A DNA stretch of 39,969 nucleotides from Microthyrium microscopicum (taxonomy: Eukaryota): positions 986,350 through 1,026,318 of the forward strand of contig MU004241.1 in assembly GCA_010405405.1 (NCBI GenBank), in the 5' to 3' direction. A model generated the notes under the pieces. It was not told where the DNA came from. It saw nothing but the letters and a program-made list of their open reading frames with translations, and did not search any database. Positions 1-39,969 of this stretch are shown here, piece by piece. Both the position numbers and the translations under genes were made by a program. Position 1 is the first letter of the stretch. Every line of letters begins with the position of its first letter.

Positions 1-700
1 ATAAAGTCCTATATACTTATTATACTAAGAATAAGACATTATTTCTACTAAGCTATAAGTAGCTTAGTTATTATTTTAATTATATAGTGCTACTTATTTC
101 TTTATATAACTAATAGAGTTAGAAATTTATTTACTATTCTTAGTCTAATAGAAATTAATATTAAAGACTAGTTATAGTATACTAAAGAAGTCTTTTCTAC
201 CTTATACTACTTAAAGAATACTATTAACTTCTTTTTTTCTTAAATTATCTTTCCTATAAAAATAAGAGAGTTTTCTTTAAAAATTTCTATATCTAATACT
301 ATTATATAGCTATTAAACTAGGTAAAAATGCTTAAGTAATATAGTAAAGAAAAGACTACCTTAAGCTCTATTTATAAGTAGGTAGATTAGATACTTAGAG
401 TAATAACTAATACCTATAGTAGTAAATCTATTTAGCGTATCTAATTACACCTATAGTATACTCTAAAAATTCTATATAAAGCTTTATAACCCTTAATACT
501 ATATATTGTCTAGGGGTTATTACTATGTATAGGAATATTACTTATTAGTAACCTTTATTATATTTAAATATATCTAGCACCTAGATAAAGTAGTAATAAT
601 ATTAAAAATAGATAAGGTAATAGTACCTTTAATAGTATATTAATTAATTATAATAATAAGAGTAATAGTAAGTAGTATATAAATTAAGCTAAAAGTAGCC
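1..700 (-). pseudogene. RIP-degraded coding fragments of an unknown gene (source of the mosaic modules)
   Basis: The minus strand reads coherently after de-RIP, e.g. module C 'MPPKVPSPHPLS..PLYPGARYIQ' and module A 'DMEIFEENSLIP.GK.IQERKEVDSTLQ'. No domain recognised. Confidence 0.35.
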
Positions 701-2905
701 TAGTTATTATTTTAATTATATAATACTACTTACTTCTTTATATAATTAGTAAAGTTAGAGATTTATCTACTATTCTTAATCTAATAGAGATTAATATTAA
801 AAACTAGTTATAGTATACTAAAGAAGTTTTTCTTACCCTACGCTACTTAAAGAGTGCTATTAACTTTTTTCTTTCTTAAATTATTTTTTCTATAGGAATA
901 AGAGAGTTTTCTTTAAAAATTTCTATATTTAGTACTATTATATAGTCTATTAAGCTAAACTTAAAAGGCTTTTAGTAGCGTTCCTAACTCTAATAGTTTA
1001 TATACGTATTAGATTTAAAGTCTAAAGAATTTACTAAGTAGAATATATTTTTAGTATAATTCTACTTAATAATAAAAAGAAATATTTAATATACTATAAG
1101 CCTTTATAAATACTTTTAATAAGCTATTAAACTAAGTAAGGATACTTAAGCAATATAATAAAGGAAAAACTACTTTAAGCTCTATCTATAAATAAGTAGA
1201 TTAGATGCTTAAAGTAATAATAGTTATCTAAGAATTATTACTACGTATAAGAATATTACTTACTAGTAACCTTTATTATATCTAGATATATCTAATACCT
1301 AGATAAAGTAATAATGATATTAAGAATAAGTAAAGTAATAGTACTTTTAATAGTATATTAGTTAACTATAATAATAAGAGTAATAGTAAATAGTATATAA
1401 ATTAAGCTAAAAGTAGCCTAGTTATTATTTTAATTATATAGTACTACTTACTCCTTTATATAACTAGTAGAGTTAAAGATTTATTTGCTATTCCTAGTTT
1501 AATAGAGATACTATTATATAGCTATTAAACTAGGTAAGAATACTTAAGCGATATAGTAAAGGCATTAAGTAAATAAATATTTCTTTAGTTATTTTAGTAG
1601 CGTCTTATATAAGCTCTTCTTCTAAAATAATAAAAGAGGTTTCCTTATAATAAATATAGTTAAAGAACGCTATATAAAGCTAAGGTTATATTTAAGGACT
1701 TAGTAATTACTAAAGTAGTTACTAAGGAGTAATAACTTTTCCTTTTTAGTTAAGATAGCGCTATTTTTATATCTTATATCCTACTAAGTAAGTAGTATAT
1801 TACCTTTATAATTAAATTAAGTAATTATATTAATAAATGCATTTATACTCCTAACTAGTTAAAGAAGTAGCTAAGGACTACCTTAAGCTCTATTTATAAG
1901 TAAATAGATTAGATGCTTAAAGTAATAATAGTTATCTAAAGGTCATTACTATATATAAAAATATTGCTTACTAGTAACCTCTATTATATCTAGATATATT
2001 TAGTACCTAGATAAAGTAGTAATAATATTAAGAGTAAATAAGGTAATAGCACTTTTAGTAGTATATTAGTTAACTATAATAATAAGAGTAATAGTAAATA
2101 GACTAAATTTTTTTAAATATTTCCTTAAATATTTTAGTAGCGTCTTATATAAGCTCTTCCTTTAGGATAAAGAAAGGGGTTCCTTTATAATAGATATAGT
2201 TAAAAAACGCTATATAAAGCTAGGATTAAGGGTTTAGTATTTTTATAATTCTTATATTAGTAAGGACTTAGTAATCTAATAAATATTATTAAGAAAAGTA
2301 GCTATTCTTAAGTTAATAGAAGTATACTAATTATTAAAGTAAGAAAGCTTATATTATAATAATAAGTATTTTCCTAGTCTAAGACTAATAAATAAATTAA
2401 GTAATAGAGAAGCTTCTATAAAGAAAAGCAAAATATCTAATAATATTAGAGTTATTAACCTACTAACGTATTAAAAGTAGTTTAATTATAATACTATAAG
2501 GAATTCTTATAAGCTAGGTACTAGTTTTAGTAATAAAGTAATTAAAGAATTTTAAAACTCTAAAGTATCTATTAGTAAGTAATACTTCTAAAATATATAT
2601 TAGCTAATTACTAATAAATCTTATATACCTATAAGTTATACCTTTTAAGTTAAGAACTATAGAGGTTAGTTTATTAACTAAAATAGTTAAAAAGTTTATA
2701 TATTCTATATTCTTTACTACTAAGTTTATCTTTTATTAACTTTACTTTCCTTTTAAGTATTTAGTATATATTCTTATAAAGTTAAAGTATAAAACTAAGT
2801 AATTATATTAATAAATACGTTTATACTCCTAACTTATTAAAGAAGTAGCTAAGGACTACCTTAACTCTATTTATAAGTAAATAGATTAAATACCTAGAGT
2901 AGTTA
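65..2905. repeat. Mosaic of shuffled, duplicated 100-250 bp modules
   Basis: Module A (tagttattattttaattatata...actattatatag) at ~65-309, ~701-945, partial ~1419-1510. Module B (gctattaaactaggtaa...ctttaagctctatttataagta) at ~310-410, ~1124-1220, partial ~1521-1562, ~1875-1930, ~2852-2900. Module C (ttattacta...agtaatagtaa) at ~510-700, ~1227-1418, ~1935-2100. Module D at ~1575-1685 and ~2114-2225. Module E at ~1818-1875 and ~2797-2852. Confidence 0.9.
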
Positions 2906-2999
2906 TTTATAGTAATAATAATTATATTTACCTTAACTCTAATATAATTAAGATTATTTAAGTACTAGACTTATTTTTAATATTATTACCTAAAGCTTT

Positions 3000-4510
3000 A
3001 GTAGTAGGATTATAGCCTTTAAATATTCTTATAGTAAGTATAGTAGTTAATACTTTAAAAGCTTAAGTAAGTAATAATAAAAGATAACTTAATAATTAGA
3101 TAACTTCTTAACGTCCTTAGCTTAGCTAGCTTTTATAAGTATATAAAGAAATTACAACTATTAAGTATGCTCTTAAAAGTAAAAAAATAAACTCTTACTA
3201 AAATATTTAGGCTCTTATTATAGATATAATAAAGCTAAGATAGCTAGTTATTAATAGATTACTAAATAAGAATAATAATCTATAGATAATAGGTAGTTAT
3301 AGCTTATACTAAATATAAAAACTTTATATTAATTCCCTAAGTATAGAATTAAAATTAAGTAATAACTTCTTATTAGAGAAGTAGCTATTATTAACATTAG
3401 CTAAGCTATATATATCCTTTACTTATATAATTATCTAGCTAGCTTTATTCTTTTACTTTTTTAGATAGGTTAGTTTTATATAAATATAAAATAAGAACTA
3501 AACTAATTTATATATATTAATAGTACTATAATTACTTTAATAGGATATTATAAACTTAAGTAGTAGCTTACTAGGATAGAAAGCTACCCTACTAATATTA
3601 ATATTAACTAATATATAAAAAGTTATAAGTTAAGTACTAGTATAGATAATAAGTAGTTATAGCTTATACTAAATATAAAAACTTTATATTAATTCTCTAA
3701 GTATAGAATTAGAGTTAGGTAGTAACTTCTTATTAGAGGAGTAGCTATTATTAATATTAGCTAAGCTATATATATTCTTTACTTGTATAACTACTTAGTT
3801 AGCTTTATTCTTTTACTCTTTTAGATAGGTTAGTTTTACGTAAATGCGAAATAAGAACTAAGCTAATCTATATATATTAGTAGTACTATAATTACTCTAA
3901 TAGAATATTATAAGCTTAAGTAGTAGCCTACTAGGGTAAAAAGCTACCCTACTAACGTTAATATTAACTAATATATAGAAAGTTATAAGTTAAGTACTAG
4001 TATAGTATCCTTAAAGAACTAATAAGCTACTATTAAGATAAAGCTATTATAGATTAGCTCTAATAAATAAAAAGACTTTTTATAGTCTAATTATAGCTAT
4101 ATTTATATTAGATTAATAAAAGTAGTTAAAGAATATATTAAGAAGTTAAAGAAGAGTTAGCTAATTATTATAGCTAGCATTAGATACTATCTTAATTAAT
4201 ATAAACTAAATAGCTACTAAGATATCTATTATAAAGAGTAATAGCTAAAAGTAATCTCTTAGCTTCTTATAACTCTATTATAATTTACTAACTTAATAAA
4301 GAATTCTTTTAAAATAAGCTATCTATTTTTCTTTTATAATATAATATAAAGTTAGTTAAACGTTTTACTTAATTTACCTAAAAGAGACTATCTTATTAGT
4401 AAGTACTTCCTAGTATTAAGAATCTATATCCTTAACTACTCTACTAAGTTAACTATAGTTTAGAAATAGTAAACTTACCTAGTTAACTTCTAATCTAAGA
4501 AAGCATACTT
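3000..4510 (+). pseudogene. RIP-degraded unknown gene with an internal 120-codon duplication
   Basis: Plus-strand frame reads e.g. 'RPQLSQLLQVHEEITTIKYALES' and an S/E-rich stretch 'DSPSAESESGSDFSSEEQP' after de-RIP. Ends uncertain, no domain recognised. Confidence 0.35.
3281..4005. repeat. Tandem duplication with an exact 360 bp period
   Basis: 3281-3640 aligns without gaps to 3641-4000, differing essentially by transitions. TATAG occurs at 3281, 3641 and 4001 (junction microhomology). Confidence 0.95.
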
Positions 4511-5329
4511 AAAATGCTTCTTTCTATTTACTAATAATAAATATATTACTAAATTACTTAATATCTATAACTCTAATAGTATAAAAGTTATATAGCTATA
4601 CTAAATATTTATATATATACTATCTATATACTATATATAACTAAAACTATTTATTAAGTATATATAAGTAAAAAATAGTACTTACTTATATAAAATTATA
4701 TAGCTACTTCTATATCTTAATAAATATAAGCCTATAAAAAATAGTCTTACTATATATAATAGTATAATATTAATTAAATAGTAAATAAAATAAAGCTTTA
4801 TAACTTCTTTACGTTCTTATAATAAATAGGTATATAAATATATATAGTTTACTATTAATTTAAAAAGGTAAGAGTTGCTTAGAACCTTATTTATTACGTT
4901 TATTATAAAGAAAAAGACTATAAAGTAGGTATATATCTTATATAATTAATTTAAAAAAACTAAGTAAGTATAAAAAGTAAAGTAAAAAAGAGAAATAAGT
5001 TACTTACGCTTAACTATTAATTTTTCTTATTCTCTATATAAAGAGCATCTATAATATAAGAAAATAAGGTTTTTTTTACTTTATACGTAAGGTTTAAAGT
5101 CTTAAGTAGCTATAAAGAAATATACTTTTTTAAGTATAGTAGTACTTTAGTATTACGCTATATAAAAGCTATTAAAATAACTTTAATAGGCACTTTTTTT
5201 ATACTTAAGCTAAGTAGAAAGTAAAGTAAAAAGAAAAAAAGAAGGTTAAATTAAGTTAAAGCTAAAGAAAAGATTTAGAAAGAGTACTATTTTAATTAAG
5301 AAAAAAAGGTTATTATACCTTAATAACTA

Positions 5330-6193
5330 CTTTAATAACTACTAAATCTTTAGATACTTACTATTCTAATATAGTTAAGAATAATCTTTGTTTAAAGTTT
5401 ATTTCTTTACTACTTTAATTTTTATATTCTTTAACTTAATAAGCTTTTTATATTTTACTATAATAATTATAATAGCTATAGAGGTAAATTCTATAATAGT
5501 TAAGGTAAAGATAGGTTTAATAAAGAAAAAGATAATAGCTATAGAGATAAATTCTATAGTAATTAAGATAGAGGTAAGTTTAATAAAAAAGGAGGTAGTA
5601 GCTATAAAGGCAAATTCTATAGTAATTAAGGCGAAAATAGATTTAATAAAAAAGAAGATAATAGCTATAAAGGTAAATTCTATAGTAATTAATATAGAAG
5701 TAGGTTTAATAGAGAAGAAGGTAATAGTTATTATTATTATTAATTACGCTTTCTTTAGTATTTGCTTAGTAGCTCTAATAATAGCCTAGCTATATCTTTT
5801 ATCTTTATCTTTTTTCTTCTTACTACTTCTAAACTTTAATATAACTTTACTACTTTATTTATAAAGCTAACTAAAATATTAAAGGTTTTAAAATATATAG
5901 AATATATAATAAAGGCAAATTCTATAGTAATTAAAGTAATAATAGAGAAGAAGATAATAATAATAAAAGTAAGTTCTATAATAGTTAAGATAAAAATATA
6001 GAAGGGCTAAGGTAGTAGCTATAGAGGCAACTTCTATAATAATAAAGGTAAAGTAGTATACTAAGTACTATTATAATATCTCTAACCTTCTCTTATATAA
6101 AGTAGACCTTATAAAGAATAAAGAGTACTAAGTAGTAAATACTTAAAGTACTTTTCTAGACGTTTTTAGACTTCTAGGGTGCTTTAGAAGCAT
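5330..6193 (-). pseudogene. RIP-degraded Pro/Gln-rich low-complexity protein gene
   Basis: The minus strand de-RIPs to '...RKKMKTED.ARLSSEPPSKHQRKRDQQQQQPPPSSPSNPPPPQSPQNLPPQPPP' repeats, with surviving cct/tcg/ttg codons. A possible ATG lies at 6193 (MLPKHPRSPETS). An alternative Ser/Thr-rich frame cannot be excluded. Confidence 0.45.
5469..5730. repeat. 63-bp (21-codon) tandem repeat, about 4 copies, with degenerate copies at ~5905-6050
   Basis: Unit ataatagctatagaggtaaattctatagtaattaagrtaragrtaggtttaataragaagaag. It appears in the ORF track as the IIAIEVNSIIVKVKIGLIKKK repeat. Confidence 0.92.
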
Positions 6194-7721
6194 AAGTAAG
6201 GAAAGGTAACGTAGCTATATATAATAATAATAGCCTCTAAATATAGCGTTCTTTAGAAAAGCTAGGTAATAGTAGCTTTCCTTTATAGTAATATATATTA
6301 AGTTAAAAGTATTACTTTTATACTAAATATAGCTCCTATACTAATAAAAGAGTTTAGTAGTTTAATATCGCTATAATTACTATCCTAGATAGGTTAGTTA
6401 GAATATAGATAATAAAGCTAGTTAAAGCTAGTTATAAAGCCTTACTTAAGTATCTTAAGGAGTAATAGTATTACTATTAACTTTATAAATTCTAACTTTA
6501 TATTTTAGTAGTATAAGTCTATTATAGGATAATATAAGCTAAATAAATAGAGTAAGCATATAATTACTTTAATTAAGGATACTCTTTAGTAGTATATTAA
6601 TTATTTATAATAATAAGAATAATAGTAAGGAACTAGTTTTTAGGTAGTAGGCTTAAAATAAGGGTAATCTATTTAGAAATAATTAAGACTAATAAGTACG
6701 CAAGTAATAACGTAAGTAATAATAAATATTAAAGTAGAGCATAATAGGCGTTAAGTTAATCTCTATTGCTATTAAGAGTAGTTATATATTTAAAATCTTC
6801 TTTAATATCCTACTTAATAGTTTAAAAATAGTAGCCTTATTACTAGATATATAATTACTTACTTTAAGAACCTTATCTAGTATTTATAATTTTCTATAGC
6901 ATATATATCCTATTAGCGTATAACTAAAGTCTTAACCTTTATAATAAATAGTAAGCTACTCTTATATAAATACTAAGAAGTAATAATTATCTTTATAGCT
7001 AGCATCTTAGAGGCTAGTAGAATAGAAACTATAAGGGCGTTTAGCTATAATAATAAGTATTATATATAGAAGGCCTATAGTAATATTATTAATAGAATAG
7101 AGCCCTTTATATAGTTTATAAAGTTAAGGAAGTTTAATATTAAGGGCTATTTTGTATTATCCTTCTAATATATTATCTTAGTAAGTAATAACATTAATAA
7201 AGTATCTTTTATACTTAGAGTACTAAAGCATAAAATATTATTTAGATAGAGTAGCTAGCCTAGTTTTAACTTTATTCTTAACTTTAGAAATTGCTTTAAT
7301 AATATAAATTTATAATAAAAGTAACTACGTAGTAGATATAAAATAAAGTAGGCATAAGATAATAGTTATCTATATGCTAATCTACTTTATAAGTAAATAT
7401 AGGTTTATATATACTTAAAAGTCTAGGAATATTTATAAAGACTTAATTTAAACTACTAGAGCTAACTTTAATATATTCTATAGTATAATAAGTTATAGTA
7501 TAAGTATATAATATTCTATAGATTAGGTTTATAGAGCGCATAGTAGTAGTGCTTACTATAATATTACTAGGCTTCTAAATAATAAATAAAGATATTAGAA
7601 TAGTAACTTTAAAGTAAAATTCTATTATTTATATAAATTACTATTATTACTAATAAGTCTTTTACTTCTTATTTAATATACTATTTCTCTTTTATAAGAT
7701 TTTATTAAGGAAAACATTACG

Positions 7722-8114
7722 TTAATGCTATTTTGTTATTAATATAATACTACCTTAAGTATTATAAGTCGTTACTTAAACTTATTTATAAAGGAGGAGG
7801 AATCTATACTCTAGTAGTATACTACTACGCATTATTATTATTATTATTATATAATTAATATATACTTATAGTATAATGCTTATAAGAATACTATTAAGGT
7901 AATATAATAACGTTTGCCTTAGTATTAGCGTTATAATTACTCTTCTATAGTACTACCCTAAGGCTATTCTACCTCTATAGTAGCTATACGTTAACTCTCT
8001 AAAAAATAATATTATATTAATACTATTTTATTATTAATATAATACTACCTTAAGTTCTATAAGTTATTACTTAAACTTATTTAAAGATAAAGAGGAGCCT
8101 ATACCTTAGTAGTA
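7722..8114. repeat. Two ~97 bp direct repeats 295 bp apart
   Basis: taatgctattttgttattaatataatactaccttaagt...ctagtagta at ~7722-7819 matches ~8017-8114. The minus strand reads like 'QISLSDDLQ.LRQYYVDDKIALTQ'. Confidence 0.85.
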
Positions 8115-8489
8115 GAAAATTAAGAGAGTTAAGAAAAGGGTTTAGCTCTAGCGCTCTAGCGCTTTAATATAGCACTAATAAACGTAAGCTAAAGTATATT
8201 AAATAAGGTATTAATAAGTCTAAAAATCTTAATAACCTTCTACTTTAGTATATAATTTAGCTTAATTTTAGTCGTAGGTTTATTATGTATTATAGCTACT
8301 ATAAATAGCTACTTATTTAATTTAAATAATAATAATAGGTGCTTAAATATAATATAGGATATAATAGCTATAGGTATAAGTAAAAAGGAGTATAGTAGAG
8401 TATAAGGAACGTATTAAAAATATTAGTAGAAAATAGAGTACATAAGAATTAAGTTTAGTTTAATAATAGTAATATTCTAGTAAGTTTTA

Positions 8490-9650
8490 GTTTAGTTACG
8501 ACTTTAGAAATGTTTAGCCCTAAACCTATTAATAGTACTATCTAATGTTCTTCTCTATTTAGCTACTAAAAGCTTTTATAATATTATTATTAAGCTACTA
8601 AAGAATAATAACTTCTAAATCTTCTAAAAAAGCTCTTCTTACTAGCTACTAAAGACAAAAACTACTTTTCTTTATATTACTATTAATAAAAAGTTATAAT
8701 TAAGCTTATTACGCTAGTTCTATTACTTAAAGAATTAAACGCTTTCTAGTTAGTAGCTATTAAGTTTACTACTAAGAACTAGCTTTATTATAGTAAATTA
8801 AGCTATAGAAAATTCTTTACTCTACTTATAGCTTTAGGTCTTAATATTATAATATATAATAAATGCTTCTATTAGATATATATTTAGTATAAGAAAGCTA
8901 AATATACTAGGTAAGGCGCTTAGTTATTATATCTTTTTAATAATATAATATAAAAAGATACTTAAACCTCTAGAGTCTTCTATCCTTATTAATAGCTTTT
9001 ATATCTTATTTTAGGAGTACTCTAAATAATAAATACTATCTCTTTAACGTATACTAGGATATTATAATTCTAAATTAATAAAATATAGTAACTATTTTAA
9101 AGATAAGACTTTATAAGCTATACTTATACTAGCTATAGAGATAAATTAGTAATATTATAATACTTATAAATTAATAATTAAACTAGATACTAGCTACTAC
9201 TATATATAGTAAGCTATACTTTTTAAGTTTCTATCTTATACTAATATACTAGAAAATTAGTTATAAATATAGTTAATTAGTTCTACTATATCTATAGCGT
9301 TAAGTAAAAAAAGTATTACTATCTATAGTAGAATAAGAATTAATTAGTTACTAAAGCTAACGTAATTATTAATTAAGAGCTAGCTAAAAGACAATAAGTA
9401 GCACTAGTAGAGCGGATTTAATATATAAAAAAGGTAAAATAGAAGCTAATTAACTAATATTAATATACTTATTTATAACGACTTAAGAAGATTAGGCGTT
9501 AACGTCTAGAATGTACTATACTAAAAGAAACCTAGCTTTATACCTACTAGAATATAAAGAATAGATTTAAAAGCTCTAACTATAAAGTCCTACTTACTTA
9601 AAAATAAAGAAATTAAAGATATTCTAATAAGACTATAAATTTTATTAGGC
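8490..9650 (+). pseudogene. RIP-degraded unknown gene
   Basis: Codon-like frame with surviving tgc/cgg/cga/tgt codons and a coiled-coil-like stretch 'ELAKRQ.VALVERIQ..EKVKQKL' near 9375-9450. No domain assigned. Confidence 0.3.
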
Positions 9651-10630
9651 TTATATTAAACTCTTATCCTTACTTCTTTTAAATAGCGTATTATCTATAT
9701 CTATATCTTATTCTTTCTCCTTATTTATTTAAAAAAAGATACCTTATATCTTTATATAATAACTATCTTCTTATTATAAGCTTTACTATTTATAGCTAAG
9801 AAGAAAAGATTTCTACTATATTTTAACTAAACTATAATATAGTATATATTATATAGATAGCTATAGATTTAGCGCCCTATAAATATCTTAATATATATTA
9901 AAATACTATGCTTATATCTCTTTCTCTATTATTAATGCTAATACTAATAGCTTAATTGCTTTTAGAAAAACGCTAAGGCTCTACTTAAGGATCTAGTTTT
10001 TACGTACTTATATAGTAATAACTTGCTTATCTGCTTCTAAGACTATATCTTACTAAGGAGAATTTAATAATATAATATTTATAAATTAGCTAGTAGTCTA
10101 TTTAGTAGAATTAAGGTTTTATTAATAAGTAGTATAGGAGTCTAGGTAGACTTTATACTTAAGTTTAGTTTAATTAGTTTCTAAGGAAGATTCTATATTT
10201 AAGTCTAGAGTATTATTATTATTCTTTTTTAACTTAGGTATTAATTTAGTTAGTATAATAGCTTTAAGGAGTTAAGAAGTAGTCTAGGATTCTAAGTATT
10301 TATAATTTATATTTTTTAGATAGGAGCGTACTTTAAATAAGAGCACTAAGAGAGTTAAGTATAGTTTTTAGTTATTTTAAAGACTATAGTATATAGTTTA
10401 TAGTAGAATTAAATAAAAGATATAATAGTATTATAATAAGTAGTAATAAAGCTATTAATTAACTAAGCAAGTTATTATAAATAAAGAAAATTATTAGAAA
10501 CTAAGATAATAAAGATATATAATGAAGGTAAATAGCTACTATTTTAATTATTATTATAAGTAGTAGATAATTATTAGGTAACGTTTAGGTCTAGTAACTA
10601 GATAAGCTCTTTATAAAAGCTTAAGGTAAA
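9650..10630 (-). pseudogene. RIP-degraded unknown gene
   Basis: The minus-strand frame reads as S/P/Q/T-rich protein, with a purine-rich tract on + (pyrimidine-rich leader) at ~10630-10720 upstream. No domain assigned. Confidence 0.25.
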
Positions 10631-10995
10631 GTATAGAGAAGATATATATATTAGAAGTAAAGTAAAGAAGTAAAATAAGTTTAAATTACTATAAGTACTA
10701 AAGAAAAAGAATTTAAAATTAATAGCCTATTATTTTATTTAAAGAATTACGAATTAAAAGCTATTAAAAAGAATAAATAATTTTACTTTTTATATATATA
10801 CTATTCTATATAAATATATATTCCTAAAGTTCCTAAATTAATTTATTCTATTATATTCTATATTATATTAATTATTATATTTAAGTCTATAACTAATACT
10901 AATAAAACTAAATTGCTTAGAAGATAATATTATAATAATAATAATAATACTTAGTAGTTTATAAAATATATAACTCTTAGGTAATAAAATATTTA

Positions 10996-13900: not shown

Positions 13901-14200
13901 GAAGATTTTTAATACTTTTTATTTTATTATATAATAGCTTCTTAAGTATTACTTCCTATTAGCTAGGTATAAAGCCTTTAAGGTTATTAATATTTTCTAT
14001 TAGTAATTTATAATTCTTTACTTTCTAACTAAGTAAGTTATATATTTTACTTCTAAAGGCTATTCCCTAAAATAACTTATTTACTTTATTCTTTAATATA
14101 CTATTAGAAACTACCTAACTAATAAACTTTAGTTCTTCCTTTAGTTAACTTTATAGCTTTACTCCTCTATAAAGCTTTTCTCTTCCTAAATAATAATATT
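10996..14200 (-). mobile_element. Plavaka-family (CMC/CACTA-related DDE) transposase domain, RIP-inactivated
   Basis: De-RIPed motifs occur in the expected order: FISWVVSNGMSKNEVDKLF (~14070-14130); ERIYTD..SAERW.ELQ (~13730-13785); LIPIHWGSDKT...WAYYMTIFNLPGSIRR...FLL.A.LP (~13545-13705); DGQFRRCLPILAY.SIDYEE....GI.SKHHCPMC (~13270-13385); NIH.A.TFDPLHIFFLNGLVK (~13000-13065); LNFPKFHNLIHF..SI.MFGT.DGTSSG.TEKLH (~12365-12470). An acidic tail lies at ~11010-11100. Confidence 0.88.
13426..13477 (-). other. Probable ~52 nt spliceosomal intron in the transposase gene
   Basis: The frame shifts by +1 between 'FHDA.D.IFK' and 'ELRMVLKSGYVMAIADG'. The intervening sequence begins GT, contains a TACTAAT branch-like site and ends TAA (possibly a mutated YAG). 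Removing 52 nt restores the frame. Confidence 0.5.
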
Positions 14201-17604: not shown

Positions 17605-17636
17605 TTATTATTAATATTAGTATTATTAATATTAGT

Positions 17637-17667
<31 letters not shown>

Positions 17668-17800: not shown

Positions 17801-17803
17801 TAT

Positions 17804-23997: not shown

Positions 23998-24090
23998 AAT
24001 AAAGATAGCAAGGTTACTAAAAATAATAAAGATAGCAAAGTTACTAAAGATAATAAAGATAGTAAGGTTATTAAAGATAATAAAGATAGC
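23998..24090 (+). repeat. 27-bp (9-codon) acidic tandem repeat x3.5
   Basis: Unit aat aaa gat agc aag gtt act aaa gat, approximately DEDSEVTED after de-RIP. Confidence 0.85.
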
Positions 24091-24510: not shown

Positions 24511-25215
24511 ATAGAGATAAGGAGCATATAATAAGATTAAGTATTACTTCTAAATAACGCTAGACCTATAAATACTACTACTATATCTTCTTAAGAACTT
24601 AAAGAACGCATTATTAAGCTAGAGATAGAGAGTATATAATAAGATTAAGCACTACTTCTAGATAGTACTAGACCTATAGATATTACTACTATATCTTCTT
24701 AAGGACTTAAAGAGTACGTTATTAAGTTAGAGATAGAGAATATATAATAAGATTAAGTACTACTTCTAAATAACGCTAAACCTATAGATATTATTACTAT
24801 ATTTTCTTAAGGACTTAAAGAGCCTATTATTAAGCTAGAGATAGGGAGCATATAATAAGATTAAGTACTACTTCTAGATAGTACTAGACTTATAAATACT
24901 ATTACTATATCTTCTTAAGGACTTAAAGAGTATATTATTAAGCTAGAGATAGGAAGCGTATAATAAGATTAAGCACTACTTCTAAATAGTGCTAAACCTA
25001 TAAATACTACTACTATATTTTCTTAAGGACTTAAAGAGCGCATTATTAAGCTAGAGATAGAGAGTATATAATAAAATTAAGTACTACTTTTAGATAGTAC
25101 TAGACTTATAAATACTACTACTATATCTTCTTAAGAACTTAAAAAGCGCGTCGTTAAGCTAGAGATAGAGAGTATATAATAAGATTAAGTACTATCTTTA
25201 GATAGTAATAGACTT
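24511..25215 (+). repeat. 108-bp (36-codon) tandem repeat, about 6.5 copies, inside the helicase ORF
   Basis: Unit starts (ntagagata) at 24511, 24619, 24727, 24835, 24943, 25051, 25159. The frame-1 reading is approximately PE.GS.QQDQAPLPDSA.P.DTTT.SSQGLEERVVE. Confidence 0.95.
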
Positions 25216-28200: not shown

Positions 28201-29169
28201 TTTACTTTTATTAGTATAATTATAATAGCGCTTTAATATATAATTAAGAAATTTAATCTCTAAGTACCTTATTTTAGTAAAACTAGTACGTTAAGTAAAA
28301 AATTATTTTTAATTAAAGTAAGCTATTTAAGAACTAGCTTATCCTTACGCAACAAAGCTAATATCTATTACTCTTTCTAAAATATTCTAAAGTCTACTAT
28401 AAATAGTTAAACGCTATTAAGAGTAAGTAAATACCTCTTTAATAAGAATATCTAGGTTCTAGTTAGAATATATAGTAGCTATAGTACTAGAAGTAACTAA
28501 TAATAAGTAAAGTATCTAATTATAATATCTATTCTAATATTACTAAGTAATTAGACTTAGGATACTAGAAAAGTTCTTTAAGTAAATAATATAGTAAAGT
28601 ATATCTTAATTAATATATTATACTTAGATAATAATTTAATTAATATACTATTACAAAATATTAATAAGCTTTAGTTAAATACTATAGGTTTTATAGAGGC
28701 TTATTCTAAAGATTAAGTAGTATAACTAATAAGACTTAAGGATTTATAAATATATCTTAAATTAGGACTAACCTAGCCTAAGTTAACTAAATTAGTATCC
28801 TAACCTAAGGAAGCCCTAGCTTCTCTATCTATAGAAGAGATATAGAAATACCTAAAGAATATTAAAAATAATATATACTAAAATATTAAAAAGAGTTTAG
28901 TTATAATTAAGATAAAGCCTAGAGATAATAAATTTAATAAATAACTTTATATATAATTAGTTTAGTTCATAGTAAGGATTAAAGTACTACTATTAAATTA
29001 TTAATAATATAAAATATTAAAAAATATACTTAAAGTTAATATTATTACTATTAATATATAAAATACATCTTTATAATAAATCTAAATATCTTAACTAGAC
29101 TAATAGACATATCTAGTAACTAAAAGAATCTAGAGAGAAATAGAAAAATAATAAGAATAGATAATAACG

Positions 29170-29650
29170 CTTTATAGCCTATAGAGTATTTATTTAGCTA
29201 AATATCTTTTAATATATATCTATAAGATATAACTTAACTATATCTATTTATAAATACTATTTTACTTATATTCCTCCTCCTTAATAATATTAACTTATAA
29301 AATAAATAATATAGCACTATTAGTTTCTATAGCTCCTATTAGAATTTTAGGTAAAGAGCTTAGGAAGAATTATAAAGCTATATTATTTATACTATTAAGT
29401 AATTAATAATTTAAGCTAATATTCTAATAGGGTATTCTATTAATCTTCTTCCTATTTATTTATAATATTAGAACTCCTTTAAAAACAAAAATTAGTAGTT
29501 TAGTCCTTTAACTTTAGCTTTTCTATAAGTAAATCTATTATCTTTACTAGCAAAAGGTTAGTAAATTATATTATATTATAATACTAGCGTTATTAATACG
29601 CTTAAATAAACTAGAAAAGATCTAGCTATATAACTACCCTCTTTACTAGA
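29170..29650 (-). pseudogene. Small RIP-degraded gene, possibly intron-containing
   Basis: The minus strand has a branch/acceptor-like 'tactaaccttttgctag' (~29547-29563) followed by a coherent frame 'IYLQKAEVEGP...FLFLEEFQ'. A purine tract lies upstream at ~29690-29760. Confidence 0.3.
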
Positions 29651-29799
29651 ATTAATTCTATTATCTACTTTATCTATATCTAAAGGCTAAGGAAAAGACA
29701 ATAAAGGAGAGAGAGATAAAAAAAGATAAAAATAAGGAACTAAAGATTAAGAAGGCTTAAACTTAAGGTATTAAGTTTTATTTAATTAGATAAGAAAAG

Positions 29800-30480
29800 C
29801 TACGTCCTTTTATAACCTTAATAATAAACTATTAGTCTAAGTAACTTTACTACCTAAATCTAGGACTTACTTATAATAACTATTACTAGTTTTAATCCTT
29901 AGCTTACTTATTTAACTCTATCTTTATACTTAATATCTTTATCTATCTTAATATTATATCTACTACTAATAACTATAAATATTATATTATTTCTTATACT
30001 AAGACAATCTATAAACTTAGTTAAGCTTTTATAAACTTAATAGGCTTATATAAATATATAAATCTTAAAAAACCTAATATAGTATTTAGATTTAAATAAC
30101 GTTTAATCCTAATATATTAATTATAATTATATTTCTTTATAATTAGCTTTATTTAGATATATACTTTAATATATACTTATTCTAGTTATAGTAACTTATC
30201 CCTTCTATATCTTTTATTAAGATTTACTTAGGTAGGTACTACTACGCTTTAATTAGACCTACTTAAAACACCCTAAGCTAATTTTTAAGAAGTTTAAGGA
30301 AGAGTAAAGTAATACTTAAAATATAAATAAAATTAAGAGTAAGAGTAAGAACTATAATCCTTTAGAATAATTAAGTATAAACTAATTATTTTATAAATAT
30401 AGAGCTATAGCTATATAATTACCTACTCTACTAAGAGTAAGCTTACTATATTTTATATTCCTACTTAAAAGCTAAAAATA
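29800..30480 (-). pseudogene. Possible RIP-degraded gene
   Basis: Minus-strand frame with an 'SHSHSQ'-like stretch. It is preceded by a purine tract and the same short motif found upstream of the neighbouring relic. Confidence 0.2.
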
Positions 30481-31249
30481 TAAAGAAACTAGAGAATATA
30501 AAGAAAATAAAGAAGTACGTAAAGAAGGCTATAAAGAAAGCTATAAAGAAAGCTTAGTTAGAGAAGAAAGCTAAGATAAAAGAAGTTACTAACTTATTAA
30601 AGAAGACTATACTTAAAAATAAAGTTAAGATAATAACTAAAGAGGCTAAGAAGGCCTAAAGTTTAAGATATAAGATACTCTTTACTAGGTAGAAACTAAA
30701 AGTTATTATATAGAATTTATAATTACTATATTAAAGTTAATTAATAATATTAGCTCTAAAAGCTTAAATAATTTTTTTTATCTATACTTTCTTACTTTAA
30801 AGGTTCTAATCTCTATATTAGGAAGCTCTCTAATATAACCTTAAATATTCTAAATATACTTATCTATAAGAGATATATAGTAAATAATAAGATAAGTTAT
30901 AAGAAAGGTAATAATTAGAAGTAGTAATTAAGAAAAATAGAATCTTAAGCTATAGGTATATTTAATAAGAGGAATTACTCTATTACTCTTAAAATCTCAA
31001 AATTTAATTAACTATTAAAAAAGTTATATAAGGTTCTAGACTTAAAATTACTACTAAGCTTTAAGGCTTCTTATCCTCTTTTTTACTACTTATCTTTTTC
31101 TATTTATAGTAATTATATTTTTATATTAAATATATATTAGTTAGTATAAAGGTTAAGATATTATCCTTAAAAAAGAAAGAGTAGAGTCTACTAAAATAAG
31201 ATAAGCTTTAGCTATAAAACTATCTACTATATTAATATTATTACTACTA

Positions 31250-33240
31250 CCTTCTTTACTTATACTTTAAAGTAGCAAATAAAAAGAAAGAAAAGAAGGA
31301 AAAGATTATAAATAAAAAGAATAAAGAATAAGAAAAGAAGAGAAAAGAAGAAAAGAAATAAGCAAAATAGAAGATAAAAAAAGAAGAGACGTAGTAAGTA
31401 AAGATAAAGAATAACTAGACTATTATAATTAGTTATAAAACTAAGCTAATATAATAATTTAGAAGTAATAAAAGTCTAAATTATTACTATTAATTATATT
31501 TAGGCTAGAAATTAAAATAGAAGAAGTTAGCGCTTTAAGTAAAGAACTAAATAGTAATTATTACTATTTAGTTCTATTAATATACTTTATAGATTAATTA
31601 GCATAACCTAGTCTACGTTATAAAATATTATTATTTATTAAAAATAAAAGAGCTTTTAATTCTTACTAAGGAAGTATAATATTAATTAAAGTTATTAAAT
31701 CTAAAATATTTAAGTATATTATATTTTTTTCTTATATTATTTCTATTTACCTCTAAGTAGATATACTTCTTATTTACCTTAATAGGAATAACTTAAAAAA
31801 TATTAAAGACTATATATACTTAAGTACTTATCTTTAGTACCTTATAAATAAAGTACCTAGTAGAATTATATTTATAGAAGGCTATAAGGTTTATAATAGA
31901 TTATATAATATAAAATTTAGAACGTAATATAGCGTCTTAAGTAATATACTAAGGCTTTTAACTACTATAGTAGAAAAAAGACGTAATCTTATTATAAGTC
32001 TACTTTATATAAAATAGCTATTAAACTTCTATTTTATTTATGCTACCTCTTATTATTTAATTAATACTAATTATAGATAAATTAGCTATATTAAAGCCTA
32101 TAATAATACTTACTTAAAATAAACTTATTATATAGTAGTAACTATATATAGGTAGCTATAGATAGTTCTTAAGCTTTATAGCGTACTTTTAATTTACTTA
32201 CCTTACTTTTAAATAAGAACGAAATAATAATAATAATTACTAACTCCTTTATTAATTTATTAAAGTTACTAGACCTAAAGTTATTACTATAAATTTATTC
32301 TTAGAAGTAGAAGATTATAACTAGAGGCTTTATTACTATAATATATTTTTTAGTACTAATGTTCCTTAATTTAATAGAGATAAGAATAGTAATCCTATAA
32401 ATAAAACTATATAGCTATTAATAATTTTAAATATAGAAAGCTAATAATAAATAAGCTAAAACGTCTAAACTACTACTTATATAATCCTCTTCGTCTTAAT
32501 AAACGTAATCTATTCTATAAATATATAATTCCTTAAATTATAAGACTAGTAAGTAAGTTATTACTAGAAATCTTACGTTAATAATAAAAACTTATAAGAT
32601 ATTAATATATAGAAGGCTAGTTACTAGAAAAGGCTAGGAATAATCTACTATTTAGATCTCTATTATAATAAGGTATAGAATACTTTAACTATATTTAGAA
32701 TAGATATTACTTTTTAGAATTTATATACTAGACTTAATTATTATTTAAGTATAGTAAATATACTAAATAATAGATTATAAAGCAAAACTATAGTAACGTA
32801 GAGGCTATAACTTTATAGTATTAAAATAATTATAACTATTAGCTAACTTATTATACTAGAGAATAAAATCTATAATACTACGTATTATAATATAAAGAAT
32901 ATAAAGGTAGTAATTTTAAGCTATAGATATATTTATAAAGTAATCTTCTTTAAAAGTATATAGGTCTTAAATAATAATATATTTAGAAAAGTCTAGAAAG
33001 TCTAGATAAGTTTAGAAATTTCTAAAAATATTTTATATAATCTTAAAGAATATTTACTTTATTATATTATTAACGCTAAATACTATTACTTACTTTATAT
33101 CTTATACATAAATATAACTTAACTATAGCTATTAACCTAAATATAAGTCTATAAGTCTTCTTCTAATAGCGTAAAGATATCTATAGGCTTAATATATAAG
33201 CCCTTAGAATTAGTAAATCTAGTTATAAGCAACGCATAGT
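31250..33240 (+). pseudogene. RIP-degraded unknown gene with a K/E-rich N-terminal tract
   Basis: A purine-rich K/E/R tract at ~31280-31410 is followed by long codon-like stretches. No domain recognised and the exon structure is unresolved. Confidence 0.3.
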
Positions 33241-33454
33241 TTTAAGTAATAACGCATTTTTAACTATTTAAGTACTACTATAGTATATTTCTCTTATATT
33301 TTCCTTTCTATATTATAATAAATTTATAACTCTTAATCCTTATAATATACTTATTATTAATTTTTAGTATATTCTCCCTATTTTAACTTTAATCTTATAT
33401 TATCCTCTTTACTTAATAATCTCTCTATATTATAATTAGACTTTTAGAAGATAA

Positions 33455-34200
33455 TATAGCTAAATAGTAGGATAGCTTAAAGGAGTATCTAAATATAACT
33501 AAAGAGAAGCTAATATAATAACTTAATATAAACTTAAATAAATATACTTAATTAGCTATAGCTATAGAGAAGCAACTTTAAGATTTATACTATAGTCTTA
33601 ATAACTATAATATATATAAAGAAAAGTAAGAAATAATTACTAATATTATATAATACCTAAATATATAATTATTAGCTAAATAAGGCTATTTATATATTAG
33701 AAGATTATATTAGCTAAGTATAAAATATAATAAAGCTATATATAAGAATAAATAATAAAGATTACTTCTTATATTAGTCTACTATTACTAACAAAATATA
33801 TACTAATAGAAATAAACAAAAGTCTAAACTTAGAATATACGTAAGTAAACCCCTATTCTAACTTTAACTATCTATTAATAATAGATAGGGTCTATTACTA
33901 ATAGAACTCTACTAATATCTCTCTAAAGCTTAAGGCTAAGAAAATTAAAATAATCCTAAGATTATAGTAATATATAACCTAAGGTATAGCTATATATACT
34001 TCTAAACTTTAACTCTTCCTTAGTAGTTATAAATATATAAATATATATTTATAAAGTAATAAGTAACTATATTTATACTTTAGACTATAGAAAGTTTATA
34101 AATAGTAGCTATAATAGTTCTAAGAAAAACGCTAATACTTTAAATTATAATACTATAGTTAAGTTCCTTAGAGAGTTCTTTAAGTATAAATAATACAAAG
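33455..34200 (+). pseudogene. RIP-degraded unknown coiled-coil-like gene
   Basis: After a pyrimidine-rich leader (~33290-33430) the frame reads approximately 'MAEQ.DSLEEYLN.TEEKLIQQLD.NLD..TQLA.A.EKQL.DL'. Confidence 0.3.
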
Positions 34201-34439
34201 AGCTCTTATTTTTTTATAAATTTAATTAAATAAAGAGAACTCCTATTAATAATAAGGTCTTATTTTATAGAGTAATTAATAGTATTATATTAATTAGGCA
34301 ATAAACTACTAAATTTAAAGTAATAAAATAAATTAAGAAATAAAATATAATTTATTATTACGTAATCCTTAGACTATTATAAGTTTTTCCTTTTTCTTTA
34401 ATTTAGGAAATATACTAATAATTAGAATAAAGCATAACG

Positions 34440-35800
34440 TTAATTATTATAAGTAAGATACTAAGGTATATTAGAATGCTTAATTCCTAGGTTAAAACCT
34501 AGCTTTATAACCTTATAGTTAATAAAGTAAACATTCTTTAAGTAAAATAAATTAGTATTAGATCTTAATAGCCTAATAAGATAGGTTAGCCTTAGATATT
34601 AAATCTCTATATATACTAGTCTAAACCCTAGCTTTAGTTTAGATACTTTCTTATCCTTTAGAGTATATTACTTATCTTACTACTCTTATATAATAAATTA
34701 GTTATCTTCTTAATATATTTATATATATTTATTAGGTTAATAGTATTTAAAGTCTACTAGCTACTTAATATAGATAGTAGATAGTACTATAAGTTAATTA
34801 AGCATAGGTTTGTTAAATACCTAAGGATTAGGCTATATTTTAGTTCCTAATATAGTAATATCTATTCTAGCTTTAAAAAATGCCTTAAACTTAGTATTAA
34901 AAGGTAGCTCTATATTAAACTTAATAGAAGTTTTTAGCAAAACTTAAGAGCTAGCCTCTATCTTAAGTTAAAGAAATAATTATAACTTAGTTTTAATAAA
35001 ATGCTTTAAAGCTTATTTAATAAAGTTTTTAAGCTTTATAATAAAAGTAGCCTATAACTCTAAACCTAGAGCTTATTTAATAAGAGTCTTAAGCTTTATA
35101 ATAGAAGGAGCCTATAACTTTAGGTCTAGAGCTTATTTAATAAAAGCCTTAAGCTTTATAAAGAAAAGAGCCTATAACTTTAAGTCTAGAGCTTATTTAA
35201 TAGAGGCCTTAAACTTTATAATAGATAAAGCTTATAACTCTAGTTCTAGAGGTTATTTAATAAGGGTTATGAAATAAAGCGCCTACTATAACTCCTAGTT
35301 TAGTAATTATTTAATAAAGGCTTTAAGCTTTATAATAAAAGAAGCCTATAACTCTAATTCTAAAGTAGTATCTAGTAAGTTAGAGTTAATAACTATTAGT
35401 AATTCTAATACTAAAAAAGCATCTTAATTAGACTTTTAGTATATATTAGCTAGGTCTAGTAATCTTATCTAATAAAACTAGAAAGTATTACCTATTTTTT
35501 ATATACTAGTAGGATTTAACTAAGAAATAGTATTCTATAATACTATAAATATTAGGTTTTATCTAATAGTACTAATTAGCTAATAGGCTTATATATATAA
35601 AAAATTATTTATATATTATAGAATTATTAGAACGCTATTCTTTAGTATTTTCTTATATACTTTATAGTAAGTTTCTATAAAATTAATATAACTTATTAAA
35701 ATATAGCTAGTCTATATATAGTTAACGCATTTACTACTATATTTATAAGAGAGTAAATAGTTATATAATATATAGATTAAGTAATTATTTATAAAAGGTT
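34440..35800 (-). pseudogene. RIP-degraded gene with a putative Cys cluster and a 20-aa repeat
   Basis: Continuous minus frame: 'CVN(C)..TS....S(C).DF.ET.(C)KV(C)' at ~35652-35729 (only the first Cys codon survives as tgc), then the 60-bp repeats, then 'ECLL(C)Q' near 34520-34535. Confidence 0.45.
35008..35362 (-). repeat. 60-bp (20-codon) tandem repeat, about 6 copies
   Basis: Successive 60-nt lines 35041-35280 are near-identical (gcctataact..a..ctagagcttatttaata...). Minus strand approximately PDPESQAPS..ELEASVEQA. Confidence 0.93.
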
Positions 35801-35937
35801 AGAATAGTGCCTATAATTAGTACTATAATAGTTAACTAATATCTTACTAGGTTTAATATATAGAATTAAAATTAAATTATTATATAATAATAAAAGAGTC
35901 TAGACTTATTAAGTAAGCATAGACTATAAATATAGTA

Positions 35938-37110
35938 ATGCCTAGTATCTAACTATTATTTATTAATATATATAAAGATAGTAACTAATATAGTACTTTA
36001 AAACTTATAGACTCTATAGGTTTAGACTCTATATTAGCTTAATTAGCAATAAAGGTAGCTTCTATAGCTTATTTATAATTAAGAGAGACAAACTAGTCGC
36101 TATAGAATAATATAATAATAATTATTAATAGACTAATTACCTAAATAAAGTAATTAAGAAGTTTAATACTAGCCTCTTTATTAAAAGTATTCCCCTATAT
36201 AAACTAGATAAGCTTACTTTAGCTAGTAAAGATTAGTAGCTAAATATATTTATATATTCCTAGAATAATTTAGTAAATAATTAACTTATCTTATATAGAA
36301 GGAGTAATAATAATAGCTAGTATTTTGCTTATTATAGTAGCATAGTAGTAATAAAAGAAGATATAAACTTTTAGTAGCTTAATAGAGTAGTAATTAAGAC
36401 GTTCTTATAGAAAATAGCGTAAGTCTAATATTAACTTCTATCTAACTATTTAGATTTAGCTTATCCTACTATTACTAATTATAAACTATAAATCTCTTAT
36501 TTATCTTATATAATACTTAAACTTACTTATATGTTTAATAATATATTAATATAATAGCTAAACGTAACTTTATAATATAAATTAATATAACTAAACGTAA
36601 TTTTATAATATAGATTAATACCTAGCCTTTACTTTAATATAAGGAGATATAGAAATAACTTAATATAAGCTTATAATTTTAGGCCTCTTTTATATGGCCT
36701 AAGAATTAGTATATATAATAATTAGCGCATTAGATAATAATTAAATATAATAGTAAGCTAAATCCAATTTTATAATATAGGATTACTACCTAGCCTCTAC
36801 TTTAATATAGCGTAGCATAGAAATTACTTAGTATAACTTAATAATCTCTAGCTCCTTTTACGTAGCCTTAAAATTAATGAATCTAATAATAATAGAAAAT
36901 AATAGCTAAATAGGATCCTATAATCTACCTTAATTTAATCTCTTATATTAATATAGCGTAATATAGAAATGACTTAACGCAACTTGCCTCCTCTTACTTC
37001 TTTTATATAGTTCTTAGAATAGCCTATTTAATAAGAACTAATAATAATAGTTAAATAAGTTTTAAAAATATAACCTTTATATATACTTAGCGTATACTAC
37101 GTTAATTAAG
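35938..37110 (+). pseudogene. RIP-degraded unknown gene, divergent from the Cys-cluster gene
   Basis: A surviving ATG at 35938 (atg cct agt atc) opens a frame that continues coherently through a basic patch (~36340-36425) into the ~168-bp repeats. Confidence 0.45.
36601..37020 (+). repeat. Degenerate ~168-180 bp repeat, 2-3 copies
   Basis: ttttataatatag..tacctagcctytactttaatata at ~36601 and ~36768, with a third partial copy at ~36947; approximately Y.ASTL.QR..EMTQHDL. A ~33-36 bp duplication precedes it (~36547-36615). Confidence 0.7.
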
Positions 37111-37599
37111 AGTTAAAAAGTAATAAGAAACGCTACTAAAATTAATCCTAGCACTAATATCTTTTACGTATTATATAGTATAACTTTTAAAATATTATCT
37201 TCTTTTCTTATTATTCTATATAATCTGCTTCTTATCCTCTACTATACTTATCTAAAGTTCTACTAATTATACGTTTCTATTAGAATACTTATATACTTAG
37301 TAATCTTTATTATAATATTATACTTATTAGATTCTTACTACTACTTTACTTTAATATTTAAATCCTAATAATATATTTTATATATAATATAATCTCTTAG
37401 GTAAGCCTATACTAAGTTAATAAAACTATAATAAATTTAGTAAAGTAAGGTAATATTATAAAAAGTAAAATAAGAAATAGGCTTATAGAAGCTTATAAAG
37501 GTTAAGGTATAAAAAAAGGTAAGGCTAAGTAAATTACTATGTATATTTTCTTAGCCTATAATTTATTTTTATTAGATTCTAATTTATATATTCTTCTTT

Positions 37600-38700
37600 A
37601 TTAGGGATAATAGACCTCTATTATAAAACTCTATAGCTTAAGACTTTTTAAGCTATAATAAATAAAATAGAATAGACTTTATAAAGTAGACGTCTAATAC
37701 TAATATAATATACTCTAAATATACTTACTAAACTAAATATTAGCTAATATAATAATTACTTACTAGCTAAACGAATGAATAGAGTTTTTAGACCTAACTA
37801 GGCAGATATAAGTTAAAGGTACTATTATTAAGCGAAATAGTACTTATAAATCTAGAAGTATTAATGAACTCTAAGCCTTAAACTCTAAGTTAGGCTTACT
37901 TAACTATCTAAAAACTAGCTTAATAATTTCTAAAAGAATAATTCCTATTAAATATTAACTAAGTCGTAATTCCTATATAGTATTAAACGCTACTTTTAAT
38001 AAAGCTCTAAAAGCTGCCTAAAATATAGGACCTATAAGTACCTTAAATAAGTCTTTTAGTAATAGCTAAGTATTTCTACTATTTATTTGTCTAGATTTGT
38101 CTAGAAAGCTAATAAATACTAATAAATATATAAGTCTTAAACTATTCTAGAAACCTTTTCTCTTTACCTTATTAATTATAATAACGTAATTACTTAGAAA
38201 AGCTTAATAGGTAACGTAGTATTATATAATATACTAGTATTTATTTCTTTTATTCTATTTTGTCTCTACCTTATTATATATATAAACTAACATAATAGTA
38301 TTAAAGTAGATTCTTCTAACTATAGCCCTTCTTAAGCTATAAGTAATAAAGACGCCGCGCTAGGTTATTTCTATTTATAGAAACTAAGATAAGCGTAAAT
38401 ATATAACTTACTACTTTCTAATATAGACTAAATGTTTATTTCTAGCTTAGGTAATTATCTTCTTAGTAATTGCCTTATATATAGTATAAATATAAATAAG
38501 CTCTCTTTATAATCTATATAATCTAGTTTACTAGTTTCTATACCTTAGTAGCTATATATAGCCTTTAAATAACTATTTCTCTCTAAGCTTATTATTATAA
38601 TACTAATAATCTTATTAATAAATCTAGTTTATTATAAGGTTTACGTTTACCTATAAGGAAAAGCAAATAAGAACCCATACTAAGCTAAAGTCTATATAAT
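37600..38700 (-). pseudogene. RIP-degraded unknown gene
   Basis: One minus frame reads coherently for over 290 codons (e.g. 'RQLLRR.LPELE.NIQS.LESG.LYIYAYL.F', 'PSAASSLL.AQEGL.LEESTL') with surviving caa/cag/tgt/gcg codons. Confidence 0.45.
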
Positions 38701-38799
38701 AATAGAGTTATTAAATTAACTATAAATAAATTAACCTTAGCTATTTTTAATAGTAAGTATAACTTAGATTCTTAGCTAGATTATTAAAACGGTGCTAGT

Positions 38800-39969
38800 A
38801 AGTAAAGTGTAATAAGTAATAAGCTCTAGAACTATTACTATAAAGTATATTTAGAAGAGGTACTACCTAAGTTTCTAACTATAGTAATTAATATTCTAAA
38901 GGTACTAACTATATTTAAGTATAACTAATTCTATAAGAATATAAGTTTGTTCTTATATCTTCTTAAATATAGTATATATAGGATTTAGCTAACTTTAAAA
39001 ACTACTTAAATATAGTATTATATTAGTTAGTATAGAATTACTATATCTAAATAGTTAAAGATATTATTATTAAATATTTAGACTAAGTAAAATATATATT
39101 AATTAGTACTATTTAACTCTATATTTCTAAGATTACTTAAGATTAAGAAACTAAATATATAAAAGTTTGCTAAGTAACTAAGAAAAAATAGTAACTTTAT
39201 TAGATTATATAAGTATAGCAAAAATAAAAAGAACGAACCTTATATAAGTTTATATTTTTAAATAAGACTAAATTATAACTATATATTAATAATACCTTTA
39301 AGAATATATATTATTTATTAGTAAGATAATTCCTTTTTTTATTAATAACTTACTATTCTATTTATATACTAATTATAAGCATAAAACTCTTATACTTAGC
39401 TAGGGTAGGAAATATTCTAAAAACTACTAGGCTATAAAGACTATAAAATCGCTATTTTTAGGTAAACTTATTATATATATCTATATATTTATTAAGTTAC
39501 GTATAGAGACTATTACCTAGAGAGTTAATAATTTTTAGTATAACCTACCTATATATTAAGGTAATTTAGGTTATTAAATAAATAATATAATACTAACTAA
39601 TAACTATAGTAAGTTATTAAAAATAGCTTAAATAATAGAACTTATAACTACCTTATTTAAAATAAAAAATAAGCTTACTTATTTAAAAAACTATTAGAGA
39701 TTTTATATTATATAAAACTAGGGTATAATATAAAGAGTAATAAGAGCTAATACTAGATATATATATTTCTAACTATAATAATATTAATAAGCTTTATAAA
39801 GTACGTTCTTTAAAAAACTAGTAATAATCTTACTAATATTACTATTTAGATAAAATCCTAGCCTATATAGAAAAATAATTATAATCTACCTACTTAAGAA
39901 GATAATAAGAACTAAGACTTCTTTAAGCTACTATAATATTTAGGGCGTAAGTAAAGTAGTTCTAAAGCT
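38800..39969 (+). pseudogene. Possible RIP-degraded gene running off the window
   Basis: Codon-like plus-strand stretch at ~39270-39560 (e.g. 'KH.TL.LSWGGKYS...WA.KT.KSLF.G'). No domain recognised. Confidence 0.2.

Follow-up and report, generated by a model that had tools for sequence, protein, structure and literature searches.

What kind of element leaves a gene-less, AT-rich block in an ascomycete genome? The question is raised by a stretch of 39,969 bases on contig MU004241.1 of Microthyrium microscopicum (positions 986,350 to 1,026,318; the whole stretch that was analysed is called the window below, and positions are counted from its first base). An initial annotation, made from the letters alone, had taken the window for a gene-dense cassette erased by repeat-induced point mutation (RIP) and had inferred that the entire array was repeated, as would be expected of a giant transposon or a large segmental duplication. 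Our analysis points to a DNA transposon of the Plavaka group as the builder of the block. The minus strand at 12287-14135 holds the remains of a Plavaka transposase, and positions 6001-26000, which include that relic, are present as many diverged copies. On balance we think it probable, if not by much, that the window is a many-copy block, killed by RIP, whose origin lies in a large transposon of Plavaka type.

The transposase relic and its mutations

The entire window (1-39969; this block and the repeats described below have no strand assigned to them) is RIP-saturated and AT-rich, with a GC content of ~0.20 overall and of 0.181-0.235 in all 39 of its one-kb intervals. Dinucleotide counts over the whole window put CpA at 0.08, TpG at 0.08 and TpA at 1.43 of expectation, and the two RIP indices are 1.64 for TpA/ApT and 0.081 for (CpA+TpG)/(ApC+GpT). 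The usual thresholds for RIP are values above 0.89 for the first index and below 1.03 for the second. Both were passed in each of the 20 two-kb bins, with the second index ranging from 0.04 to 0.15 per bin, and the description of this DNA as mutated to saturation is therefore borne out across the window by its GC content, by the depletion of CpA and TpG, and by every bin. Only 13 frames of at least 60 amino acids run from stop to stop, the longest of them 134 amino acids, and the window contains no tRNA genes or Rfam families.

All six frames of the whole window were translated, with stops read as X, and scanned against Pfam. A single family was significant, PF18759 (Plavaka transposase), which matched the minus strand at about 13473-13919 with E-values of 3.7e-4 to 5.3e-4 and scores of 19.7-20.3 bits. 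A weaker match to ArgoL1 at about 3936-4028 (E 0.036, 14.2 bits) was taken as a chance hit among more than 20 long translations. There was no Pfam match in the six frames to reverse transcriptase, RNase H, integrase or gag, so that the initial statement that domains of long terminal repeat (LTR) elements or long interspersed nuclear elements are not recognisable holds at the level of Pfam, with the qualification that a transposon domain, that of Plavaka, is present. The same scans gave no match to the DUF3435 tyrosine recombinase that acts as captain of Starship elements, or to any other Starship-associated family, in the window, outside which such a gene could lie. The initial annotation had suggested looking for a DUF3435 captain; the mobility enzyme that is present belongs to the Plavaka DDE transposases.

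With 1200 residues of the PF18759-bearing frame as query, phmmer was run exhaustively against 1.84 billion representative proteins and returned 20 proteins at E ≤ 1e-3 (best 1.4e-9), all of them aligned to window positions 13458-14156, and all 20 are Plavaka proteins by Pfam (E 1e-22 to 1e-47). By tblastn, 17 of the 20 matched one and the same locus (best E 9.8e-15), with no second locus in the window, and a subfamily hidden Markov model (HMM) built on the 20 proteins scored 107.9 bits against the relic (E 4.3e-35).

The relic falls into two parts on the minus strand. The first, which covers the first half of the Pfam domain, lies at 13482-14135 and has 14 stops in 218 codons; the second, in another reading frame, lies at 12287-13387 and has 32 stops in 367 codons. 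When 82 full-length Plavaka proteins were compared with the window, their 16 high-scoring segment pairs (HSPs) all fell inside a core at 13464-13916 and did not reach the second half, which was matched at 12329-13090 by positions 428-622 of 923 of an HMM of the 82 full-length proteins (independent E-value 1.5e-6). A search for protein P0006 among longer proteins gave no match.

Both parts are also recovered by comparison with the closest intact relative that we found, L001, a 9.6-kb metagenome contig. L001 matches the window from 14135 to 13482 (E 3.3e-18) and, with its own positions 4223-5074, from 13387 to 12368 (E 8.7e-20). The two matches are colinear, and the gap of ~95 nt between the parts of the relic (13388-13481, minus), across which the frame changes, stands opposite a gap of ~100 nt in L001 (4123 to 4223). 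We read it as probably an intron at a conserved position, shared with L001. All 20 of the related Plavaka protein fragments stop near position 165-195 of the Pfam model; these ends and the matching gaps suggest that Plavaka genes have a conserved intron and that gene callers cut their predictions short there.

The catalytic core of Plavaka transposases is described, in the available part of the source, by DDE, C(2)C and H(3-4)H motifs (PMC12730594). With stops in both of its parts, the relic has no intact core, and D386, an invariant position of the family alignment though not necessarily a catalytic one, is replaced by N. Among the residues that are invariant in this alignment, W365 has become TAG, W366 TAA and Q369 TAA, and in two further invariant columns T377 has become ATG and D386 has become AAT. 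All five of these codons are products of C-to-T or G-to-A transitions. The minus strand at 12287-14135 thus carries a RIP-killed DDE transposase of Plavaka type (CACTA/EnSpm-like, CMCT clade).

Diverged copies of the stretch

Copies were sought for positions 6001-26000 among the contigs of four public runs (X1-X4, from one sample of one study), placed on the window at a likeness of at least 80%. About 3400 contigs per run fitted in X1-X3 and 481 in X4, and they covered all 30 bins of the range. In X1, 859 contigs were at least 99% alike, 923 were 95-99% alike, 1215 were 90-95% alike and 469 were below 90%. The differences recorded in X1 were almost entirely transitions, with 591 places of A>G, 543 of C>T, 494 of G>A and 458 of T>C (2086 in all) against 12 places of transversion, and X2-X4 showed the same transition-dominated pattern. 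The longer pieces listed, of 212-1182 nt, were 85-91.5% alike and were spread from 6289 to 25888, transposase included; those in the transposase region (11585-12158 and 12935-13462) were ~91% alike. The stretch is thus present as many diverged copies in one sample, and the core of the initial proposal, that this DNA was repeated and hence became subject to RIP, is supported for 6001-26000.

In X1 the summed word depth was 938-2666 per bin, as against ~65-135 for single listed contigs. The ratio is ~8-22 fold and corresponds roughly to ~8-22 copies, a summed depth not being a true copy number. Over the bins of 9.3-24 kb the depth held between 1454 and 2142, with the exception of a value of 1033 at the simple-repeat bin 17340-18006. 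At least the 15-20 kb surrounding the transposase act like a single unit, in that copy number and divergence are much the same throughout.

The copies also differ in their internal arrays. Joints that skip 108 and 540 nt at 24.5-25.2 kb indicate that the number of units in these arrays varies from copy to copy, which makes the tandem arrays part of the repeated unit. Other copies retain G or C at hundreds of positions, and at the 96-nt tandem repeat of 17961-18363 their contigs carry G-rich inserts where the window copy is A-rich. These inserts read like a less mutated version of the repeat; translated from the minus strand, presumed to be the sense strand, they would specify a repeat rich in proline. 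It follows that less RIPed copies exist in the same sample. Other joints, skipping 1-15 kb, were not accepted as deletion derivatives, because their sides consist of only 20-25 letters in AT-rich DNA.

Relic reading frames and internal repeats

RIP causes no indels, and old reading frames should therefore persist as a phase in the stop codons. Stops were counted in six frames in bins of 600 nt (n = 132) and compared with those in 30 sequences simulated from a first-order Markov model of the window. A frame with a stop count at or above the simulated 99th percentile was held by 41 of the 132 bins, and one at or below the 1st percentile by 18. The codon phase is unchanging over 10.5-12.6, 13.5-20.4 and 23.7-27.9 kb, as well as over several shorter blocks. 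About twelve such blocks can be counted in the window, so that the dozen relic frames reported initially were roughly right in number and stand out far above chance, except that several of the blocks are merely tandem repeats.

The strand of a phase block was read from its stop pattern after calibration on the transposase exons, whose strand is known from homology. By this rule most of 3.3-20.4 kb would be minus-sense and 23.7-28 kb plus-sense. Confident strand assignment is limited to the transposase, and the picture of a gene-dense array on alternating strands is accordingly borne out only in part.

Two of the blocks are long. One, at 14400-20400, lies upstream of the transposase in the frame of its first part (minus, as suggested by stop phase) and includes coding-like tandem repeats at 17604-18363. 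It gave no Pfam match, and an exhaustive phmmer search with query residues 1-800 (14.2-16.6 kb) found no homolog among 1.84 billion representative proteins. The other, at 23700-28000 (probably plus, again from stop phase), contains, at 24512-25213, a tandem array in which a 108-nt unit is repeated 6.5 times; it likewise had no Pfam match, and 25201-27900 had no homolog in a word-based protein search. Tandem Repeats Finder (TRF) reported periods divisible by three in 21 of 22 tandem-repeat rows across the whole window, which fits a coding origin for most of the internal arrays.

Self-matches cover 14.8% of the window and are all local. At the left edge, 1-2950 is an array in which a module of ~640-720 bp occurs about four times in diverged form, with pairs (49-320/685-957, 506-799/1224-1516 and 1169-1393/1877-2101) that are 84-91% alike. 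A 46-nt piece of the module recurs at 6584-6629, and loose contig ends at 6628-6629 continue like the module. The module may represent a small repeat family in its own right, or else subterminal repeats. Weak inverted matches to it were seen at 7818-7862 and 35777-35849. A tandem duplication of 360 nt x 2.0, 91% alike, was found at 3281-4005 both as a self-match and by TRF, which also reported an array of 60 nt x 6.0 at 35010-35362. At 20983-21670 a repeat of ~70-100 nt forms a cluster, with two copies in direct and one in inverted orientation that are 80-93% alike: 21144-21234 and 21670-21570 are 80% alike (E 7e-17), 20983-21053 and 21636-21565 are 81% alike, and one inverted pair (I7) is 93% complementary over 43 nt. 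The cluster sits in the 3 kb that separate the two long, divergent phase blocks, and a 32-nt piece at 20927-20959 turns up in other contexts in three runs. Long inverted repeats in the window were at noise level only (70-78%), and long direct repeats of LTR type were absent: among direct matches between distant positions the longest spans 224 nt at 69%.

Extent and identity of the element

Plavaka ends are described as TGT..ACA with a target site duplication (TSD) of 2 bp, or as CATCA..TGATG with a TSD of 2-3 bp, in the part of PMC12730594 available, and as CATAC for Tuber in that of PMC12581995. RIP would turn such ends into TATTA..TAATA, which is ubiquitous in the window. A scan for RIP-degraded ends (YATYA..TRATR, at least 19 of 30) gave 2369 pairs in the window and 2483 in the control. 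Of these pairs the best-scoring one, 4768/22859, is identical at 24 of 30 positions, or at 28 of 30 when transitions are allowed, with TAA on both sides, and is not above chance. It would bound an 18.1-kb element around the transposase; no step in depth is seen at 22859. No clear terminal inverted repeat was seen in L001.

Several observations favour one large unit. The depth is fairly even and the divergence uniform over ~15 kb around the transposase; the 40 kb hold one transposase, no other mobility gene and no nested LTR pairs; and giant Plavaka elements have a precedent in a red alga, as described in the accessible part of bioRxiv 10.1101/2025.02.11.637652. The history that we envisage would begin with a large cut-and-paste transposon of Plavaka type, equipped with a transposase, long frames and tandem arrays, which multiplied to about ten to twenty copies. 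RIP, whose signature is plain in the window, would then have detected these copies as duplicates in sexual cycles and converted C to T on both strands, above all at CpA, so that CpA and TpG all but disappeared. The outcome would be stops at Trp and Gln codons and the loss of invariant residues, as seen in the transposase. Since RIP brings such stops and altered residues, every gene in the window would be dead, as the transposase is.

The initial interpretation was right to see a many-copy relic of a mobile element here, but its central claim, one cargo element that extends beyond the window, stays a conjecture, and a number of points weigh against a single large Plavaka element. The PF18759 score of the relic is under the curated cut-off of 26.3 bits. 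The depth in X1 is uneven, with a dip to 938-1566 at 7.3-9.3 kb that may reflect an insertion of its own or a deletion carried by part of the copies, and 27% of the longer X4 contigs continue into unlike sequence, which fits patchy homology as well as it fits a single unit. The contigs, of ~1.2 kb or less, are too short to show colinear copies, and the copy-number data are confined to 6001-26000, although the equal saturation of 1-6000 and 26001-39969 suggests that these flanks were repeated likewise. Accessory genes of large Plavaka elements (TET/JBP, methylase, SET, ParB, helicase) were not detected by Pfam in the window, nor was a 2OG oxygenase domain, and no recognisable accessory gene was found beside the transposase with Pfam at E ≤ 0.1, in the flanks of 80 related loci or by protein searches. 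When the six-frame translations were compared with the 80 related loci, all 25 HSPs fell within 12287-14135, so that these loci share nothing with the window beyond the transposase; L001 carries a transposase gene alone, of ~3.3 kb. The module array of 1-2950, finally, looks like a family of its own.

Many of these points would be expected if the window were a mosaic or nest of unrelated RIP-degraded repeat families, in which the Plavaka relic is an ordinary piece of 5-10 kb and the other frames are other dead elements. That account would explain why the end scan found no ends above the control, it accommodates the dip in depth and the X4 contigs that run on into other sequence, it would make the modules of 1-2950, with the fragment at 6584-6629, a separate small family, and it agrees with the lone transposase of the closest intact relative. 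The AT-isochores of Leptosphaeria maculans are described as mosaics of RIPed transposons in the portion of PMC3105345 available to us. Against a nest, a second transposon protein domain occurs nowhere in the six frames, LTR-like direct repeats are absent and self-matches make up just the small, local share of the window given above. The copy depth is also rather even over ~15 kb, and the listed pieces are uniformly 85-91.5% alike. We regard a mosaic as a serious possibility, though a distinctly doubtful one.

The repetition of the whole 6001-26000 stretch, together with RIP that is uniform across the window, would also fit a Starship-type giant element or a large segmental duplication without a transposase of its own, in which the Plavaka relic travelled as a passenger or was a nested insertion. 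Against this, DUF3435 and other Starship-associated families are absent from the Pfam scans of the window, ~8-22 copies are more than one would expect of a segmental duplication, and the sole mobility gene in the window is the Plavaka transposase itself; we consider such an origin improbable. That 85% of the window has no second copy inside it might suggest single-copy DNA made AT-rich by leakage of RIP from its neighbours or by some other mutational bias. For 6001-26000 this is refuted by the many diverged copies in all 30 bins, and the transition-only differences and the depletion of CpA and TpG are a RIP signature, so that we give this explanation hardly any credence. We conclude that a RIP-killed block derived from a large Plavaka-type transposon remains the best, and narrowly probable, account of the window. 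Within that account a single unit of 20 kb or more is plausible, if slightly doubtful, and it is unlikely that the whole window and more belongs to one copy of a Plavaka-type element that measures at least 40 kb and has about fifteen copies.

As matters stand the window is a commonplace wreck left by RIP, to which a useful label can now be given, and its kind, a RIP-killed transposon of Plavaka type, is already known. The label nevertheless names the builder of a gene-less, AT-rich ascomycete block as a DNA transposon of a recently delimited group, rather than the usual retrotransposons or a Starship, and provides a further case for Plavaka elements of unusual size among the Pezizomycotina. 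Were the copies colinear over tens of kilobases, this family would rank with the largest known transposons of the cut-and-paste kind, and its long frames without known content would be worth recovering from less mutated copies. Should the unit reach 40 kb or more, its size would be roughly double that of the largest Plavaka that we found described (17-19 kb, from a red alga), and its cargo would include, upstream of the transposase, a frame of ~1900 codons and, in divergent orientation, one of ~1400 codons without detectable relatives.

AT-isochores of filamentous ascomycetes, such as those of Leptosphaeria maculans, are described mainly as retrotransposon mosaics. The window resembles them in being a uniform, gene-less block of ~20% GC with saturated RIP indices and dead transposons, and is unlike them in that no retroelement domain is found in it and that one DNA-transposon family may explain much of the block. 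With the fungal Plavaka elements (PlavakaA/B of the CMCT clade; Kojima 2025, PMC12730594; Tuber, PMC12581995), so far as the available parts of these sources describe them, it shares PF18759, a multi-copy state and a fungal host, and RIP is among the keywords of the former (PMC12730594); their defining ends are not recognisable in the window after RIP, and TET/JBP was not found in it. Beside these fungal elements stands a repeated unit in the window of at least ~15-20 kb. The giant Plavaka of the red alga Bostrychia moritziana measures 17.4-19.1 kb and is described, in the accessible portion of the source, with three accessory genes and tandem arrays (bioRxiv 10.1101/2025.02.11.637652). It belongs to another kingdom, its accessory-gene domains (N6-adenine methylase, SET, ParB-like and 2OG oxygenase) have no detected counterpart in the window, and, unlike the algal element, the window decayed by RIP. 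The two are alike in combining a Plavaka transposase with further long genes or frames and internal tandem arrays, and in that most of their copies are degenerate.

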